Positions 2,442 through 25,807 of a stretch of DNA of 35,926 nt are shown one piece after another. The notes below the pieces were generated by a model, which worked only from the letters and a program-made list of their open reading frames with translations, searched no databases and was not told the DNA's origin. The stretch spans positions 496,001 through 531,926 of the forward strand of contig JASTWF010000334.1 of NCBI GenBank assembly GCA_030390025.1. Direction: 5' to 3'. Each line of letters starts with the position of its first letter. Within the stretch, counting starts at the first letter, position 1. The DNA comes from Squalus acanthias (lineage: Eukaryota). The translations under genes were made by a program, and so were the position numbers.

Positions 2442-3246
2442 TCGAATATAAGAACATAAGAACATAAGAAGTAGGAGCAGGTGGAGGCCATATGGGCTTT
2501 GAGCCTGCTCCACCATTCAATAAGATCATGAGAGATCTTTCTCACCCAATCTCCATATCCCTTGATTCCAAAAATGTATCTATCTCAACCTTGAATATAC
2601 TCAACGACTCAGCCCTTTGGGGTAGAGAAGTCCAAAAATTCACAACCCTCTGAGTGAAGAAATTCCTCCTCACCTTAGTCTCAAATGGCGACCCCTTATC
2701 CTGAGACTATACCCCCTAGTTCTAGACTCTCCAGCCAGGGGAAACAACCTCGCAGCATCTATCCTGTCAATCCCCCTCAGAATCGTATTTGCTTCAATGA
2801 GATCACCTCAGTGGCAGCAGCAGAGTGAGTATTTAAACTCACTTTCGCGGGCTTTTTTTCAGAGGCCAGTGTCGGGAATGGAGAGAGCAGCAGCACAGTG
2901 AGTAGTTAAACTCACTTTCGCGGGCTTTTTTTCAGAGGCTTACCAATCTCACAGACCGGTCGGCGTTCCAGAGCCACGTCACAATTCAAAAAAGTGACGC
3001 GGACAAGGGGAAGCAGCTGATTGGGTGAGTACGGCCAGGTGAGTATTTATACTACTCTGTAGTTTGACAGTTAAGGTTAATAGTTTATAAAGTTTAGTAG
3101 GTCCTAATTTTTGTGGTTATAGTTTCTAAGGTCTCTGTTGTGTAGCAGGGAGTGCTAGTATACAAGGGCCCTTGAGTATATCATTTAATTGTAGTGTAAT
3201 TTGTGGTATTGATTTGAGTTAATTTAAATTAATTAAAGGATAAGTC

Positions 3247-4197
3247 ATGGCAGCACAGCTCAGCCCCGTGGCATGCTCCTCCTGCACTATGTGGGAAATC
3301 AGGGACACTTCCTGTGTCCCTGACAACCATGTGTGCGGGAAGTGTATCCAGCTGCAGCTACTGGCAGACCGCATTGCAGTGCTGGAGCTGCGAATGGATG
3401 CATACTGGAGCATTCGCAATGCTGAGGACATCGTGGATAGCACGTTTAGGGAGTTGGTCACACCGCAGGTAAAGGCTGCACAGGCAGGAAGGGAATGGGG
3501 GACCACCAGGCAGAGTAGTAGGCGCAGGCAGGTAGTGCAGGGGTCCCCTGTGGACATCCCCCTCTCAAACAGATATACCACTTTAGATATTGTTGAGGGA
3601 GATGGCTTATCGGGGGAAGGCAGCAGCAACCAACTTCCTGGCACCATGGGTGGTTCTGCTGCACAGGACAGGAGGAAAAAGAGCGGGAGAGCTATAGTGA
3701 TAGGGGATTCTATTGTAAGGGTAATAGATAGGCGTTTCTGCTGCCGCAAATGAGACTCCAGGATGGCATGTTGCCTCCCTGGTGCAAGGGTCAAGGATGT
3801 CTCGGAGCGGCTGCAGGGCATTCTGGAGGGGGAGGGTGAACAGCCAGTTGTCGTGGTGCATATAGGTACCAACGATATAGGTAAAAAATGGGATGAGGTC
3901 CTAAAACCTGAATATAGGGAGTTAGGAGGTAAATTAAAAAATAGGACTTCAAAGGTAGTAATCTCAGGATTGCTACCGGTGCCACGTGCTAGTCAGAGTA
4001 GAAATAGAAGGATATTTCAGATGAATACGTGGCCAGAGGAATGGTGCAAGGGGGAGGGATTCAAATTCCTGGGACATTGGAACCAGTTCTGGGGGAGGTG
4101 GGACTAGTACAAACAGGACGGTTTGCATCTGGGCAGGACCGGGACCGATGTCCTAGGGGGAGTATTTGCTAGTGCTGTTGGGGAGGGTTTAAACTAA
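3247..4197 (+). pseudogene. CR1 ORF1 (CxxC-CxxC zinc finger, leucine zipper, SGNH esterase) with two premature stops
   Basis: CSSC..CGKC, heptad leucines, IVIGDSIVR, LPGAR, VHIGTND and DGLHL. In-frame stops at 3751 and 4105; natural end GGT TTA AAC TAA at 4186-4197. Confidence 0.9.
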
Positions 4198-7100
4198 AAT
4201 GGCAGGGGGTTGGGAACCTGTGCAGGGAAACAGAGGAAAGGGAAGCAAGGATAGAAGCAAAAGACAGGAAGAAGAAAAGCAAAAGTGGAAGGCAGAGAAA
4301 TCAAGGGTGTAAATCAAACAGGGCTACAGTAAATAATAATTCTAAAAGGACTAAGAGTGTTAAAAAAACAAGCCTGGAGGCTTTTGTGTCTTAATGCGAG
4401 GAGCATTCGTAATAAGGTGGATGAATTAGCTGCGCAAATAGATGTAAACGGATATGATATAATTGGGATTACGGAGACATGGCTCCAGGGTGACCAAGGT
4501 TGGGAATTCAACATCCAGGGGTATTCAATATTCAGAAGGACAGACAAAAAGTAAAAGGAGGTGGGGTAGCATTGCTGGTTAAAGAGGAGATTAACACAAT
4601 AGTAAGGAAGGATATTAGCTCTGATGATGTGGAATCTGTATGGGGAGAGCTGAGAAATACCAAGGGGCAGAAAACGTTAGTGGGAGTTGTATACAGACCC
4701 CCAAACAGTAATGCTGAGGTTGGGGTTGGCATTAAACGGGAAATTAGAGATGCGTGCAATAAGGGCACAGCAGTTATCATGGGTGACTTTAATCTACATA
4801 TAGATTGGGCTAACCAAATTAGTAACAATACTGTGGAGGAGGAATTCCTAGACTGTATACGGGATGGTTTCCTGGACCAATATGTCGAGCAACCTACTAG
4901 AGATCAGGCCATCTTAGACTGGGTATTATGTAATGAGAAAGGATTAATTAGCAATCTTGTTGTGCGAGGCCCCTTGGGGAGGAGCGATCATAATATGATA
5001 GAATTCTTCATTAAGATGGAGAGTGAAGTAGTTGACTCAGAGACTAGGGTCCTGAATTTAAATAAAGGAAACTACGATGGTATGAGGCGCGAGTTGGCTA
5101 GGATGGATTGGGGAGCGTTACTTAAAGGGTTGACGGTGGATAGGCAATGGCAAACATTTATAGATAGCATGGATGAACTACAGAATTTGTTCATCCCTGT
5201 TTGGCATAAAAATAAAACAAAAAAGGTGACTCAACCGTGGCTAACAAGGGAAATTAGGGATAGCATAAGATCCAAGGAGAGGACATATAAATTGGCCAGA
5301 AAAAGCAGCAAACCTGAGGATTGGAAACAGTTTAGGATTCAGCAAAGGAAGACAAAGGGATTAATTAAGAAGGGGAAAATAGAATATGAGAGTAAGCTTT
5401 CAGGGAACATAAAAACTGACTGTAAAAGCTTCTATAGATATGTGAAGAGAAAAAGATTGGTGAAGTCAAGCGTAGGTCCCTTGCAGTCAGAATCAGGGGA
5501 ATTTATAATGGAGAACAAAGAAATGGCTGACGAATTAAATACATACTTTGGTTCTGTCTTCACAAAGGAGGACACAAATAAACTCCCAGAGATGTCGGGG
5601 AACATCGGGTCTAATGAGAGGGAGGAATTGAATGAAATCACTATTTGCAGGGAAATGGTGTTTGGGAAATTGACGGGATTGAAGGCCGATAAATCCCCAG
5701 GGCCTGATAATCAACATCCTAGGGTACTTAAGGAAGTGGCCCTAGAAATAGTAGATGCATTGCTGGTCACCTTTCAAAATTCTATAGACTCTGGAATAGT
5801 TCTTATGGATTGGAGGGTAGCTAATGTAACCCCACTATTTAAAAAAGGTGGTAGAGAAAAAACGGGGAATTATAAGCTTGACATTGGTAGTGGGCAAAAT
5901 GCTAGAGTCCATCATAAAAGATGTAATAGCTGAGCACTTGGAAAACAGTGACAGGATCGGACAAAGTCAACATGGATTTACAAAAGGTAAATCATGCCTG
6001 ACTAATCTACTGGAATTTTTTGAGGATGTAACTGGTAGAATAATTAAGGGAGAAACAGTGGATGTGGTGTATTTGGACTTTCAGAAGGCTTTCGATAAGG
6101 TCCCGCATAAGAGATTAGCGTGCAAAGTTAAAGCACATGGGATTGGGGGTGAGGTACTGATTTGGATAGAGAACTGGTTGGCAGACAGGAAACAAAGAGT
6201 TGGAATAAATGGGTCTTTTTCCGAGTGGCAGGCAGTGACTAGTGGGGTACCACAGGGATCGGTGCTAGGACCCCAGCTATTCACAATATATATTAATGAT
6301 CTAGACGAGGGAACTAGATATAATATCTCTAAGTTTGCAGACAACACAAAGCTGGGTGGGCGTGTGTGCTGTGAGGAGGATGCAGAGAAACTCCAGTATG
6401 ATTTAGACAGGTTGGGTGATTGGGCAGATGCATGGCAGATGCAGTATCATGTGGATAATTGCGAGGTTATCCACTTTGGTGTCAAAAACAGGAAGACAGA
6501 TTATTATCTGAATGGCAATTGAAGGATCCAGATTGTTCCCAAAGAACTCTGGGATACTTGACTACTACTGAAGGATCCTGCTTGTTCCCAAAGAATGCTG
6601 AGATACTTGACTACATTACCCTCTACTTATTTCGGATAGTAGGTTTAGCTGATTAAGGCATATTTGTAGACTGGAAGGTGCCTCTCTCCCCTTATCAAAC
6701 CTTGGAATATATGTATTCACAACCTCAGTAGAGCCATTGTCAAAGCACAGCCTGGCCTCCCAAGAGATAAGGGAGCAATTAACAACCAACACAGTTCCAG
6801 GCACGGGGGTACATCTACTATTCGAACCTGGTCACCCAAGAGATAAGGGAGCAATTAATGACCAACACGGTTCCAGTCACTGAGCATCCAAGCCATTACG
6901 GCCTTGAGCCACCCCGCTCTGTCCGACAGCCAGGGATAAAATATGTTTTCTCAAACTATAAACTATGCCCGCAAAGGAAGAGATAACAGCAAGAATTTGG
7001 GGAGTAGGATGAGGCAACCAACATCTGTGACTGGCATGGTCAGGGTTCAAGGGGAGGGCCCGACAGTTGAGTGACTAACCATATAACCAATAGAGAGTAA

Positions 7101-11322: not shown

Positions 11323-12348
11323 ATGGGAACCATTTATTTCCTTTCATCATGGACCTCAGATTCGGATGAGGAGCAGCCACGGCAGCAGCAGAACCAGGCA
11401 GCTCAGCAGCAACAGCAGCAGGAGCGCCAACCTCCTGCTCACCCACCTGATGCTGCACAGGGCAGAAGGTGCCAGCACATGACAGCACATCGCCGCAGGA
11501 GATACCCCCTCTCAGGGTTTACAGACAGAGGATGAGCTACCTCAACATGAGTGAGCAGCAGTACCAAAGGAGGCTGAGGGTTTCACGAGAGGTTGTCGGA
11601 GACACCTGCGCACTGCTGCAACCAAACCAGGAGCCCAGAGGAGCGGCTGGACACCCCTTACCAGTGGTTGTCAAAGTCACCACCGCACTCAACCTTTTTG
11701 CCTCAGGTTCCTTCCAGGGATCATCAGCAGACATCAGTGGCATCTCCCAGTCAGCCGCCCACAGTTGCATCACGCAGGTTACCAATGCCCTTTTCGCAAA
11801 GGCATCCATTTGCATGCACTTCTTAAGGGATCAAGCAAGTAGAACCGCGTGTTCAGTTGGCTTTGCAAATATGGCAGGCTTGCCAATGGTTTAGGGCGTC
11901 ATAGACTGCACACATGTGGCCCTTAGGGCACCCCATCACAACCCAGCTATCTTTCTCAACTGCAAGGGCTTCCACTCCCTCAAAGTACAGCTGGTGTGTA
12001 ACCACAAGAAGGAGATTTTGCATTTTTGCGCCAAGTTCTGTGGTAGTTGCCATGACTCGTTCATCCTGCGGAGCTCCAGTGTTCCTATGCTCTTCAATCC
12101 GCCAAACCAACTTAATGGATGGCTTCTTGGTGACAAGGGCTGCACCCTGAAGAAGTGGCTAATGACAGCATCATGGCTTGCAGCTTCCTGATGAGCAAGT
12201 GGTTCAGTTCATAGCCTCCTCAGATGAGGATGAGGAGGATGAGGAGGAGGATGAGGAGGACCGAGTGGCGGCGTATCTACCAGGAGCAGTGGCAGCGCGC
12301 GAGCACATGGCTGCCCGTGATGCAAGGGAAGCACTCATCCTGGCCTGA
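11323..12348 (+). pseudogene. Harbinger (HARBI1-like) DDE transposase, disrupted
   Basis: RRLRVSRE, KVTTALNLFASGSFQ, GISQSAAH, (Q)[31 protein letters not shown] and WLLGDKG. Frameshift near 11505, stop at 11892, and the region carrying the third catalytic residue is missing before the acidic tail. Confidence 0.88.
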
Positions 12349-12614: not shown

Positions 12615-13088
12615 CTAATGGTGCTTTATTTTTCTCTTACGCGTGCTCCTACATAGTGCTCCCCCTGTGGCTTCAGCAGATGTGGAGGCACCTTGCTCGC
12701 TTTCATGCTGCTCCTGCTTCGACACCTTTGGCGGGCGTCCTCTAGGTTTCTGAGCCTGTGAGGGCTCACCAAATGTCTGCTCATCCTGCGGCAGTGCAGG
12801 GGCTGAGATGCCCATCTCAGTTGGATGCAGACTCTGGTGGGGCTTTGACCGAGGGCTACGCAGTGGCATGGAAGTGTGAGTGCTTGGAGAGGAGCCCCCA
12901 CCTCCTTGTGCTTTGCCAAGGGTTATATCTCTTGCCAGCTGGACCCACACAGCCTTGGTTTCTTTGGGAGGCCTCTTCCTCCCATATGAGGGGAAGAGCA
13001 CTTCCCTGCTAGCTCTCACCCCCTTAACCAGGATACCCAGCGCCTCATCCGAGAACCTCGGGGAGGCCCTTGCCTTGGAGCTGGCCAT
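12615..13088 (-). pseudogene. Harbinger Myb/SANT-like DNA-binding protein, internally deleted
   Basis: PRFSDEALGILVKGV...REVLFP...W..LA is a Myb/SANT start, and the C-terminus RSTRKRKIK is basic. It lies convergent to the transposase inside the TIRs. Confidence 0.78.
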
Positions 13089-13176
13089 TCTTCAATGAGA
13101 TAAAAGTTAGGAGGTGGTGCAGCATCGACCAAAAACCAATGGAATGAGCCAAGGCAACAAACAGCACTTAAATGAA

Positions 13177-19749: not shown

Positions 19750-21495
19750 CTGCAGTTAAAGGGAATTAGATTAAAACAAGCTGCAATCATCACAACAGCA
19801 ACGAAGGCATATAATGTTGCCAAGATTGGTGGGAGACCAGAGGATTGGGAAATTTTTAAAAACCAGCAAAGGATGACTAAAAAAATAATAAAGAGAGAGA
19901 AGATGAATTATGAGACTAAACTGTCAAGAAATATTAAAACAGATAGTAAGAGCTTCTACAGGTATATAAAAAGGAAGAGGGTAGCTAAAGTAAACATTGG
20001 TCCCTTAGAGGATGAGACTGGGGAATTAATAATGGGGAACGGGGAAATGGCAGAGACTCTGAACAAATATTCTGCATCTGTCTTCACGGTAGAAGACACT
20101 AACAACATCCCAATAATGGATAATCAAGGGGCCACAGGGAGTGGGGAACTAAAGACAATCACTAACACTAAGGAAATAGTACTCGGTAAAATAATGGGAC
20201 TAAAAGACGACAAGTCCCCTGGACCAGATGGCCTGCATCCCAGGGTCTTAAAAGAAGTGGCTGCAGAGATAGTGGATGCATTGGTTGCAATATACCAAAA
20301 TTCCCAGGACTCTGGAGAGGTCTCAGCAGATTGGAACACCGTTAATGTAACACCACTATTTAGGAAAGGAGGGAGACAGAAAGCAGGAAACTATAGACCA
20401 CTTAGCCTAATATCTGTCATTGGGAAAATGCTGGAGTCCTTCATTAAGGAAGCAGTAGCAGGGCATTTAGAAAAACATACTGCAATCAAACAGAGTCAAC
20501 CTGGTTTTAGGAAAGGGAAATCATGTTTAACAAATTTGCTGGAGTTCTTTGAGGATGTAACAAGCAGGGTGGACAAGGGTGAGCCAGTGGATGTGATGTA
20601 TTTGGATTTCCAGAAGGCATTCGATAAGGTGCCACATAAAAGGTTACTGCATAAGATAAGAGCTCACGGAGTTGGGGGTAATATATTAGCATGGATAGAG
20701 AATTGGCTAACTAACAGAAAGCAGAGAGTCAGGATAAATGGGTCATTTTCTGGTTGGCAAATGGTAACTAGTGGGGTGCTACAAGGATCGGTGCTGGGGC
20801 CCCAAATTTTACAATCTACATTAATGACTTGGAGTGCAGATTGGAACAGAGTGTTAAGCTGCGAGTTTGGTGAGTGAGGGAGTAAATCTTAAAGGTTAAT
20901 CACTTATTTTTATAAATTCTAGTCTTGTGTGCTTGCAATTAGCATTTAAATTTACTGTTTTAAGTTTTAAGTTTCTTCCAGGCTTGGGCAGGGCTGAGCA
21001 AGCTCTGTGCTGGAGAGCAGGTGAGAGTAATTAATTAATTAACTGGTCTAATCTGGTTCTGTAACTGCCAGAGCGCTCACTTATTTAAATCTCAGCAGTA
21101 TAAATAAGGGAGACTAGAGTGCAGTTTGTCACGGAGTGCAGATTGGAACAGAGTATTAAGCTACGAGTTTGGTGAGTGAGGTGTTCCTTCCTTTTTCGAT
21201 CTTTGTCAGCTTCCTGGTGCGGCGGCAGACCTGCGTGAGGCGAGGCGGCAGCAGAGGTTTTAAAAGGCTCCAGAGACCAGGTAAGACGGGACCAGTCTCC
21301 GAACTCGGAGGGAGGGAGAGAGGTCAAAAATAATCGAGGTGTGACGTCACCAGAAAGCAGGTAAGTAACTGGTTGGTGAGTATTTCTCTCTTTTTAAACT
21401 TAAACTCTGTGGTTTATAGTTTCTAAGGTGTGATATTCATCAGGCGGGGCAGAGGGTATTTAAAAATTATTAATAAATTTAATTAATTACATAGA

Positions 21496-22452
21496 ATGGG
21501 AGAGCAGGTGATGTGTTACTGCTGCAATATGTGGGAGCTGGTGGACACCATTGATGCTCAGGGTGATCACATTTGCAGTAAGTGTTGGCTGCTCGAGGAA
21601 CTCCGGCTCCGTGTTGATGAGCTGGAGTCCGAGCTTCAAACACTACGACACATCAGGGAGGGGGAGAGTTACCTGGACTCTGTGTTCCAGGAAATAGTCA
21701 CACCAATTAGATTAACTAATTCAGATGTAGTCCGTGGTCAGGGACAGGAGGGTGTGACTATGAGTGAGGCAGGTACGGGGATCCAGGAGGTAGTGTTGGA
21801 GGAGCCGCAGCCCTTGCTCTTGTCCAACAGGTTTGAGGCTCTTACTCCCTGTGAGGACGGGAGCAGGGACTGCAGGGAGGATGAGCAACCTGGCCGCAGC
21901 ACCGTGGAACAGGGGGCCATTCAAGTGGAGGGAGTAAAAAGAAATGTTGTAGTGGTAGGGGATAGTATCATAAGGGGGATAGATAGGGTTCTTTGCAGCC
22001 GAGAGCGAGAGTCCCAAAGGTTGTGTTGACTGCCCGGTGCCAGGGTTAAGGACATCTCCTCTGGGCTGGAGAGAAACTTGGAGTGGGAGGGGGAGGATCC
22101 AGTGGTCGTGGTCCATGTTGGTACCAACGACATAGATAGGACAAGGAAAGAGGTTCTGCTGAGGGAGTATGAGCAGCTAGGGGCCAAATTAAAAAGCAGA
22201 ACCACAAGGGTAATAATCTCTGGATTACTACCTGAGCCACGAGCAAATTTGGCTAGGGTAAATAAAATCAGAGAGTTAAATGCGTGGCTCAAAGACTGGT
22301 GTGGGAGAAAAGGGTTTTGCTTCTTGGGACACTGGCACCAGTACTGGGATGGGAGAGAGCTGTTCCGTTGGGACGGACTTCACTTGGCCAGTGCTGGGAC
22401 TAGAATCCTGGCGAATCGAATAACTAGGGCTGTAGAGAGGGCTTTAAACTAA
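21496..22452 (+). pseudogene. CR1 ORF1 (zinc finger, leucine zipper, SGNH esterase) with one premature stop
   Basis: CYCC..CSKC, LEELRLRVDELESELQTL, VVVGDSIIR, VHVGTND and DGLHL. A single TGA at 22027 lies in the C(C)LPGA motif; the ORF ends RALN*. Confidence 0.92.
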
Positions 22453-25434
22453 TTAGTGGGGGGGAGGTTTCAAGAGAGCGAAGAATAAAAATGTCAGCGG
22501 AGAAGGCAATAGAGCAAATTAGCAGTGGGGAAATTAAAAACCAGAGCATGTCAGGAAAGGACAGAATATATAAAGATAAAGGTAAAGTAGTAAAGGGGGT
22601 AAAAGCAGGAATGAATTGTCACAAAACATGTTTAAAAGTTCTTTATCTGAATGCACGCAGCATTCGTAACAAAATAGACGAGTTGACGGTACAAATAACT
22701 ACACATGGGGATGATCTGGTGGCCATTACAGAAACATGGCTGCGAGGTGACCATGACTGGGAACTAAACATCCAGGGGTATTTGACTATTAGGAAGGACA
22801 GACAGGAAGGAAAGGGAGGTGGGGTGGCTATGTTAATAAAGGATGGAATCACTGCAATAGTGAGAAATGATATTGGGTCAAAGGATCAGGATAGTGAAAC
22901 AGTTTGGGTGGAGATAAGGAATAATAAGGGGAAAAAGTCACTAGTGGGTGTAGTCTATAGGCCTCCTAACAGTTGTAACTCTATTGGTCGGAGTATAAAT
23001 CAGGAAATAGTTGGGGCTTGTAAGAAGGGAACAGCTATAATCATGGGAGATTTTAACTTTCATATTGACTGGACAAATCAAATTGGGCAGGGCAGCCTTG
23101 AGGAAGAGTTCACAGAGTGCATTAGGGACGGGTTCCTTGAGCAGTACGTTACTGAACCAACCAGGGGGCAGGCAATCTTAGATCTGGTCCTGTGTAATGA
23201 GACAGGATTAATAAAAAATGTCCTAGTAAAGGATCCCCTTGGAATGAGTGACCATAACATGGTTGAATTCCAAATTCAGTTGGAGGGTGAGAGAGTTGGA
23301 TCTCAAACCAGCGTACTAAGCTTAAATAAAGGAGACTATGAAGGTATGAGAGCAGAGTTGACTAAAGTGGACTGGGAAAATAGATTAAGGTGTAAGACGG
23401 TACAGGAGCAGTGGTGTACATTCAAGGAGGTATTTCACAACTTTCAAGAAAAATATATTCCACTGAGGAAAAAGGGGCGTAAAAGAAAAGACAGCCATCC
23501 GTGGCTAAGTAAAGTAATAAAGGAAAGTATCCGACTGAAAACAAGGGCATATAAAGTAGCCAAATCTAGTGGGAGGATAGAAGATTGGGAAGCATTTAAA
23601 AGCCAGCAAAGAATAACTAAAAGATTAATTAAGAAGGGGAAGATAGATTATGAAAGTAAACTAGCAAAAAATATAAAAACAGATAGCAAGAGTTTCTACA
23701 GTTATATAAAAAGAAAAAGGGTGGCTAAAGTGAATGTTGGTCCCTTAGAGGACGAGACCGGGAAATTAGTAGTGGGGAACACGGAGATGGCAAATACGCT
23801 GAACAAATATTTTGTATCAGTCTTTACAGTAGAGGATACTAAAAATATCCCAACACTGGACAAACGGGGGGCTATAGGGGGGCAGGAGCTAAACACGATT
23901 AAAATCACTAAGGAGATGGTACTCGGTAAGATAATGGGACTTAAGGCAGATAAATCCCCTGGACCTGATGGCTTACATCCTAGGGTCTTGAGAGAAGCAG
24001 CGCTAGGGATTGCGGATGCATTGGTGGTAATTTTCCAATACTCCCTGGATTTGGGAAAGGTCCCAGCAGATTGGAAAACTGCTAATGTAACGTCCTTATT
24101 TAAAAAGGGAGGTAGACAAAAGGCTGGAAACTATAGACCAGTTAGCCTAACATCTGTGGTTGGTAAAATGTTGGAGTCCATTATTAAGGAAGCAGTAACA
24201 GGACATTTGGATAAGCATAATTTAATCGGACAGATTCAGCATGGTTTTATGAAGGGGAAATCATGCTTGACAAATTTGCTCGAATTCTTTGAGGACGTAA
24301 CAAACAGGGTGGATAAAGGGGAACCAGTGGATGTCGTGTATTTGGACTTCCAAAAGGCATTTGATAAGGTGCCACACAAAAGATTACTGCACAAGATAAA
24401 AAATCACGGGATTGGGGGTAATATACTGGCATGGGTGGAAGATTGGCTATCTAACAGAAAACAGAGAGTTGGGATAAATGGTTCATTCTCGGGTTGGCAA
24501 TCAGTAACTAGTGGTGTTCTGCAAGGGTCAGTGCTGGGACCCCAACTCTTTACAATCTATTTTAACGATTTGGAGGAGGGGACTAAGTGCAACGTATCCA
24601 AGTTTGCTGACGATACAAAGATGGGAGGAAAAGCAGTGAGTGAGGAGGACATAAAAAGCCTGCAAAAGGACATAGACAGGCTAAGTGAGTGGGCGGAAAT
24701 TTGGCAGATGGAATATAATGTTGGAAAGTGTGAGGTTATGCACTTTGGCAGAAAAAATCAAAGAGCAAGTTATTATCTAAATGGAAAGAAACTGCAAAGT
24801 GCTACAGTACAAAGGGGTCCTGGTGCATGAAACACAGAAGGTTAGTATGCAGATACAGCAGATGATCAGGAAGGCCGATGGAATCTTGGCTTTTATTGCA
24901 AGGGAGATGGAGTATAAAAGCAGGGAAGTCTTGCTTCAGTTATACAAGGTACTGGTGAGGCCACACCTGGAATACTGCGTAAAGTTTTGGTTTCCATATT
25001 TAAGAAAAGATATACTTGCTCTCGAGGCAGTTCAGAGAAGGTTCACTCGGTTGATTCCGGAGATGAGGGGGTTGACTTTTGAGGAAAGGTTGAGTAGGTT
25101 GGGCCTCTACTAATTGGAATTCAGAAGAATGAGAGGCGATCTTATTGAAACATATAAGATTGTGAGGGGGCTTGATCGGGTGGAGGCGGGGAGGATGATT
25201 CCACTGATGGGTGAGACTAGAACTAAGGGGCATAATCTTAGAATAAGGGGCTGCCGTTTCAAAACTGAGATGAGGAGAAACTTCTTCATTCAGAGGGTAG
25301 TAAATCTATGGAATTTGCTACCTCAGAGAGCTGTGGAAGCTGCGACATTAAATAAATTTAAAATGGAGATAGACAGTTTCCCAGCTGATAAGGGAATTAA
25401 GGGTTATGGGGAGCGGGCAGGGAAGTGGACGTGA
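22443..25434 (+). pseudogene. CR1 ORF2 (APE endonuclease and RT)
   Basis: A 779-aa open stretch (22491-24830) has the endonuclease and RT motifs including KFADD. A small deletion or frameshift occurs near 24815 and a stop at 25111. Confidence 0.93.
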
Positions 25435-25807
25435 GTCTAGGTTCGGATCAGCAATGATCCTATTGAATGGCGGAGCAGGCCCGAGGGGCCATATGGCCTA
25501 CTCCTGCTCCTACTTCTTATGTTCTTATGTTCTTATGAAGGGATCGAGTGTAATGCAGCCAAGTTTGCGGATGATACAAAAATTGGAGGGAAAGCAAGTT
25601 GTGCAGAGGACTCAAAGAATCTGCAAAGGGATATAGACAGGCTAGGTGAGTGGGCAAACATTTGGCAGATGGAGTATAATGTGGGAAAGTGTGAGGTTAT
25701 CCACTTTGGCAGGAAAAGTAAAAAAGCAAACTATTATTTAAATGGAGAGAGATTACAAAATGCTACAGTTCAGAGGAACCTAGGGGTCCTTGTGCATGAA
25801 ACACAAA

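Follow-up and report, generated by a model that had tools for sequence, protein, structure and literature searches.

Comparative evidence for a probable programmed -1 frameshift signal at the ORF1-ORF2 junction of CR1 retrotransposons

CR1 elements are the dominant retrotransposon group in most vertebrates (PMC13343379). In the canonical layout given by Stuart et al. 2026 (PMC13343379) and, as type IVB, by Metcalfe and Casane 2014 (PMC4120745), ORF1 combines a zinc finger/leucine zipper with an esterase, and ORF2 encodes an APE endonuclease and a reverse transcriptase (RT); chondrichthyan L2 elements are described as having no ORF1 (PMC13343379). Both CR1 papers treat ORF2 as a separate ORF, and the word frameshift is absent from their main texts and from the searchable part of the 2026 supplement, yet the consensuses of PMC13343379 themselves carry the heptamer motif discussed below. 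Here and throughout, statements about published work refer to the accessible parts of each source.

For some other retroelements, passage from ORF1 to ORF2 is stated to require a frameshift, namely Dictyostelium TRE5-A and TRE3-A (PMC5911963) and Penelope-like elements (PMC8557442); Paramecium elements are a further precedent outside CR1. The Dictyostelium and Penelope-like elements differ from CR1 in clade and host, a pseudoknot is mentioned in the Penelope legend, and a heptamer at the end of an esterase is not described in the accessible text of either paper. For CR1, we found no report of frameshifting in the literature searched, including the accessible parts of PMC3905857, PMC5408684, PMC5405496, PMC4255032, PMC11835228 and PMC6609765; the founding papers (Haas 1997, Kapitonov and Jurka 2003), which may raise it, lie outside this scope. 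CR1 is also unmentioned in the first 300,000 characters of Atkins et al. (PMC5009743). How CR1 ORF2 is translated is not addressed in the literature covered by this search.

A decayed CR1 element and its junction

The window analysed here is a stretch of 35,926 nt from Squalus acanthias (contig JASTWF010000334.1), and all positions refer to it. It is rich in CR1-type LINE fragments and contains a near full-length CR1 LINE (copy 2; ORF1 from 21496, 3' tail up to 25537), which holds the junction at 22443-22452 (Table 1). Two ORF remnants on opposite strands (11451-11894 and 12615-13091) resemble a Harbinger/PIF-type transposase and its Myb/SANT partner.

Table 1. Features of copy 2 and of the copy 1 junction in the window
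Feature	Position	Strand	Remarks
CR1 ORF1	21496..22452	+	Cys-rich N-terminus, likely coiled coil, SGNH esterase; C-terminus ...ERALN-stop; one in-frame TGA
Premature TGA in ORF1	22027..22029	+	marks copy 2 as decayed
Slippery heptamer U UUA AAC, ORF1 frame	22443..22449	+	
ORF1 stop TAA, directly 3' of heptamer	22450..22452	+	
G7 run	22458..22464	+	candidate stimulator, or Gly-Gly coding in -1 frame
Purine-rich linker	22453..22646	+	in-frame ATGs at 22491, 22548, 22611
ORF2, first endonuclease motif (LNARS) through RT	22647..24830	+	register break near 24814-24830
ORF2 3' part, other frame	24781..25434	+	stop at 25111-25113
3' microsatellite tail (TTCTTATG)3, end of copy 2	25514..25537	+	
Copy 1 junction	4188..4209	+	same heptamer, TAA, G5 run 4205-4209; no ATG in -1 linker; one-base register break before endonuclease

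Copy 2 has the esterase-type ORF1 with Cys-rich N-terminus by which CR1 is recognised. The esterase matches the Lipase_GDSL_2 domain (E 1e-11), and an ORF1 profile matches the ZfL2-1 esterase 4C1B (E 1e-43). The best relatives of this ORF1 come from rays, sharks and a chimaera, with 78% identity to a stingray protein, and ORF2 contains both the APE endonuclease and the RT domain. CR1 LINEs carry a 3' microsatellite tail in place of poly-A, as is seen at the end of copy 2. In its 5' region (20834-21200), a block is repeated at about 20843-20880 and 21135-21185, resembling the 5' subunit repeats of the CR1 group. The 5' UTRs of copy 2 and of another CR1 copy in the window (copy 1) also have two words in common, one of 16 nt ending in TTTCTAAGGT (21414-21429 and 3117-3132) and one of 11 nt, GGTGAGTATTT (21281, 21361 and 21376 in copy 2; 3025 and 3039 in copy 1). 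These look like a splice acceptor and a splice donor, possibly reflecting a conserved intron in the CR1 5' UTR.

Because of the premature TGA in ORF1, ribosomes could not get to the heptamer of copy 2. With this stop and the late break in ORF2 the copy is dead, so any claim about frameshifting concerns the CR1 family. Copy 2 is a broken fossil that still displays the design of a probable frameshift signal.

A preliminary description of this locus had proposed an in-phase slippery site at the end of ORF1. The heptamer TTTAAAC is present as described, with the ORF1 frame reading gcT TTA AAC TAA. The -1 frame is free of stops over 22428-24830 (FKLISGGEV...) and gives the 779 aa counted from the ATG at 22491; this is less than the whole of ORF2, which is interrupted by the register break. 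A G-rich tract starts 7 nt past the heptamer, as had been noted, while the pure G7 run begins only at the ninth nucleotide. The 194-nt linker has no stop in the -1 frame as against 7 in each of the other two, and only 1% of shuffled linkers are open. Copy 1 keeps the heptamer, the adjacent stop and the G-run, also as reported, and its one-base register break lies just before the endonuclease motif. The linkers of the two copies had been called unrelated; this holds for the DNA, where shuffles do as well in 151 of 300 cases, but at the protein level there is still a slight resemblance, reached by 7 of 500 shuffles.

Counted as a word alone, TTTAAAC shows hardly any enrichment: it occurs 11 times in the window where 5.5 would be expected, a number also reached in 5 of 100 shuffled sequences. 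What is beyond chance, judging from the sequence comparisons below, is its place, its phase and its recurrence in relatives.

Junctions and ORF1 tails in relatives

We collected nine junctions in which ORF1 ends in Leu-Asn, namely those of both window copies and of 7 of the 47 metagenome loci. Six of these seven form one related group from two metagenomes, so that about four independent lineages are represented among the nine. All nine x-Leu-Asn-stop junctions read T-TTA-AAC, where codon use in the ORF2s of the window predicts a chance of about 0.02-0.03 each. The stop codon adjoins the heptamer in eight, and in all nine, 5-7 consecutive G follow, beginning 9-11 nt past the heptamer. The endonuclease motif follows directly in the -1 frame in five junctions and behind a one-base break in the linker in the other four; a random ORF2 frame across subfamilies, which the preliminary description had named as an outcome that would refute frameshifting, was thus not seen. 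No AUG is shared: copy 2 alone has an AUG in frame upstream of LNARS, the first endonuclease motif. Among the other metagenome loci, two have decayed heptamer junctions (L006, L036), five have an in-frame TGA, and the rest lack ORF2 or run off the contig.

One protein of 1054 aa (P0057) joins esterase, endonuclease and RT in a single frame. It reads YLK-LVGQGG (...YLKLVGQGG...) where its relatives end in YLN, which fits one extra A in the heptamer, and may be a mutant or an assembly error. It displays an open -1 linker free of Met.

In sequencing run X1, the depth over contigs of the copy 2 family peaks at 22420-22453 and at the endonuclease start and drops in the linker. The ATG at 22548 reads GTG in about 54% and that at 22611 reads ATA in about 98% of this depth. 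No variant falls in 22443-22452 among the variant rows listed (40 of 87), which is not proof that the heptamer is invariant. The raw-read runs gave 8 and 0 reads.

The motif could also be found in published consensuses. In the Stuart et al. 2026 supplement, TTTAAACTA has 23 matches within the first 400 letters of each consensus, a search that has no denominator and uses consensuses too rough for frame counts. By eye, 17 of the matches lie at the end of ORF1, two in 5' UTRs and four in L2 or Rex1 entries. The 17 come from sharks, rays, a chimaera, bowfin, a teleost, coelacanth, bullfrog, alligator and crocodile, and the shark CR1 consensuses resemble the copy 2 junction by eye. Matches in the PMC4316615 supplement were set aside as irrelevant, being located in the 3' end of ORF2.

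At the protein level, the terminal Leu-Asn is invariant in all 27 aligned ORF1s, which were selected as full-length and have 25-78% identity, even where the tail is six residues longer. As tail length goes from 25 to 39 residues, Leu-Asn tracks the stop and not the fold. Carriers of x-Leu-Asn-stop include stingray, catshark, sawfish, sawshark and an elephantfish, and further a snake, two turtles, two lizards, a swallow and contigs labelled as sturgeon.

A larger set of 242 proteins was reduced to 174 in which 22-42 residues follow the last esterase block, and to 101 after dereplication. These tails comprise 40 ending in Leu-Asn (which the search profile favoured, as it contained Leu-Asn itself), 11 in Gly-Asn, one in Lys-Asn and 49 others. 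An X XXY YYZ heptamer can be encoded at the very end in 53 of the 101, compared with 16, 7, 5, 3, 7, 9, 4 and 2 at offsets 1-8, so that offset 1 forms a second peak. The 48 tails unable to encode an end heptamer are decayed or mis-called copies and other lineages.

The heptamer requires the preceding codon to end in U, which excludes Lys, Glu, Gln, Met and Trp before Leu-Asn. None of the 40 tails has one of them there, whereas at positions -4 to -8 they make up 42 of 200 residues (Fisher p 3.7e-4, an optimistic value because the background varies from 3 to 15 of 40 by position and the rows are related). The one exception, an ELN tail (P0017), had been merged with a near twin by dereplication.

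In the Gly-Asn tails, Gln precedes in 9 of 11, fitting CAG GGA AAC. The Gly-Asn and Lys-Asn tails, classes known here as proteins that may derive from LINEs, are compatible with coding by G GGA AAC and A AAA AAC, respectively, and our scans of bacterial genomes, viral contigs and plasmids found none of their DNA. UUUAAAC, GGGAAAC and AAAAAAC are among the four most shifty heptamers according to Atkins et al. (PMC5009743). In a quick tree built from the esterase, tail excluded, the Gly-Asn and Lys-Asn tails fall into a single clade that also includes one Leu-Asn tail, and a Lys-Asn and a Gly-Asn sequence are sisters at 97%.

Several other arrangements came to light in the same searches. In five esterase ORFs the stop is a TGA with C as the next base, and the reading frame stays open past it (L008:1273, L023:2996, L025:1326, L037:2053, L039:2106). 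This frame runs into the endonuclease in L008, L037 and L039, and an ATG lies three codons past the TGA in L023, L037 and L039. From their sequence, these TGA-C junctions appear readthrough-like and belong to other esterase-LINE lineages. One esterase ORF1 clade (P0153, P0155, P0193, P0194, P0201, P0232, P0234, P0236, P0237) carries the dipeptide Gly-Phe or Phe-Phe close to the stop, at a distance of one or a few codons; a slip site of the form G GGU UUU or U UUU UUN could lie there. CR1 ORF1 sequence also lies inside annotated shark and ray host gene models (P0015, P0041, P0043, P0052, P0053, P0058), probably through mis-annotation or exonisation.

No relatives were found in the viral contigs or plasmids searched, and the Atlas search named only esterase clusters. 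The bacterial-genome scan returned 16 loci, mostly bacterial SGNH proteins, together with one retroelement without the heptamer. The latter (L050:2460-2630) has an esterase ORF1 and an endonuclease/RT frame in a bacterial genome bin, where it is probably host DNA. Its two ORFs overlap for about 55 codons, ORF2 being in the -1 frame; an in-frame ATG is present and a canonical heptamer absent.

Proposed frameshifting and alternative routes to ORF2

This comparative evidence supports the frameshift reading of the preliminary description. The junction has an X XXY YYZ heptamer in the zero frame, a -1 frame open into the downstream domain, and conservation beyond the need of the protein. We consider it likely that active CR1 members make ORF2 by programmed -1 frameshifting, as an ORF1-ORF2 fusion. 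Ribosomes would translate ORF1 up to its last two codons, and most would halt at the adjacent UAA or UAG and release the esterase ORF1p. A minority would slip back by one base on U UUA AAC and continue through the variable, charged linker into the endonuclease and RT. The product would be a Gag-Pol-like ORF1p-ORF2p fusion, with the predicted junction ...ERALN/LISGG... in the copy 2 subfamily. Slippage itself, its rate and its stimulator are what we infer from this arrangement.

ORF2 could be obtained without slippage if the ribosome stopped at the ORF1 end and restarted at an overlapping UAAUG or a nearby AUG, releasing a free ORF2p. SART1 provides a precedent for such a UAAUG stop-start (PMC10275272). 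UAAUG with the AUG in the ORF2 frame is found by eye in 3 of the 17 published junctions, all from sharks (two Squalus and one Scyliorhinus consensus). The in-frame ATGs for which the preliminary description left reinitiation open are indeed there in copy 2, three in number, and the first (22491) is reasonable, with A at -3. However, copy 2 reads UAAUU, and none of the nine junctions has UAAUG. In run X1, the only T>G place at a frequency of at least 5% among the variant rows listed (40 of 87) is 22519, so UAAUG is uncommon in this family there. The lack of an AUG before the first endonuclease motif in eight of the nine DNA junctions, and in P0057, further weakens the case for reinitiation, as do the frequencies of GTG at 22548 and ATA at 22611 in run X1. 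Restarting at an AUG also leaves unexplained both the fixed heptamer and the frame that is open back to it. We therefore regard this route as unlikely, although it may serve as a second one in some shark subfamilies.

Quite unlikely, in our view, is a restart at a non-AUG codon of the linker, as proposed for mammalian L1, with some other role for the heptamer. In PMC5009743, initiation of L1 ORF2 is discussed as independent of the AUG, and such a restart would fit both the missing AUG and the missing stimulatory structure. It needs neither a fixed -1 phase nor an X XXY YYZ heptamer, however, and predicts neither the U required before Leu-Asn nor the exchange of Leu-Asn, Gly-Asn and Lys-Asn.

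Very unlikely is that Leu-Asn is kept for the protein, as the end of the last esterase helix, with the heptamer as a by-product of codon choice. Leu-Asn does end a helix, a preference for helix capping could explain the small residues at -3, and TTA and AAC are ordinary codons in the CR1 elements of the window. Against this stand the T-TTA-AAC found at every junction despite its low expectation and the way Leu-Asn follows the stop. Moreover, the solved zebrafish L2 esterase chain (4C1B) ends without an aligned Leu-Asn, and the fold thus seems not to need it.

A splice acceptor at TTTAAACTAG was dropped, since TAA is present and a pyrimidine tract absent in the two copies of the window, and so was polymerase slippage, as no run longer than 3 precedes the stop.

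Candidate stimulators and comparison with known systems

The preliminary description implied a structured G-rich 3' element, which did not emerge from fold tests of copy 2, of the nine junctions or of their consensus. The RNA downstream of the copy 2 heptamer folds worse than shuffled sequences (z +1.3 and +0.9), z falls below -2 in only one of the nine junctions, and the consensus fold reaches -2 kcal/mol. No conserved hairpin or pseudoknot was found 5-9 nt downstream; the tools model no pseudoknots, but the purine-rich linkers contain no partner C-run. A downstream hairpin as general stimulator was rejected because only copy 1 has one. G4Hunter-type maxima of 0.8-1.4 over the nine junctions do not show a conserved quadruplex.

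As no folded RNA is conserved, the likeliest stimulators would be the stop codon itself, where termination may be slow, and the G-run, which would lie at the mRNA entry channel. We regard the abutting stop together with the G-run, perhaps bound by a protein, as candidates by analogy. Frameshifts stimulated by a stop codon or by a protein offer such analogies. Alternatively, coding for Gly-Gly in the -1 frame may account for the G-run.

If CR1 does frameshift in this way, its RT would be produced as a fusion with the esterase and endonuclease, in a fixed proportion to ORF1p; in this it would resemble retroviruses and differ from L1. The esterase and coiled coil could tether the RT to the particle. 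ORF2 annotations that start at the first Met would be wrong, often cutting the endonuclease. It would also be a very widespread frameshift signal of cellular genomes, seemingly working without a pseudoknot.

A broader reading is possible, though in our judgment somewhat short of probable. All esterase-type CR1, from sharks to birds and including invertebrate-type relatives, would make their RT as a Gag-Pol-like esterase fusion at a stop-abutting heptamer, with the stop and the G-run as a structure-free stimulator to which a protein, for example ORF1p, possibly binds. Sister lineages would have swapped the heptamer (GGGAAAC, AAAAAAC, perhaps GGGUUUU/UUUUUUN) or would use UGA-C readthrough, repeating the retroviral split between frameshifting and readthrough.

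Among LINEs, the UAAUG coupling of SART1 and the AUG-independent reinitiation of L1 likewise concern a bicistronic RNA in which ORF2 depends on the translation of ORF1. They yield a free ORF2p and need no slippery site, whereas most CR1 junctions have no AUG. The closest match is retroviral and coronaviral -1 frameshifting (PMC5009743), where the upstream ORF likewise has this heptamer (U_UUA_AAC, as in IBV) at its end, read in the same phase. As in those viruses, the polymerase frame of CR1 is the -1 frame without a shared start, and exchange appears to occur among the most shifty heptamers. Unlike them, the host is a non-LTR retrotransposon, the stop abuts the heptamer, and only a G-run takes the place of a conserved pseudoknot or hairpin. 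By its sequence conservation, the CR1 junction appears to be a real and widely conserved recoding signal, which would represent a known mechanism in a new class of host with an unusual cassette.
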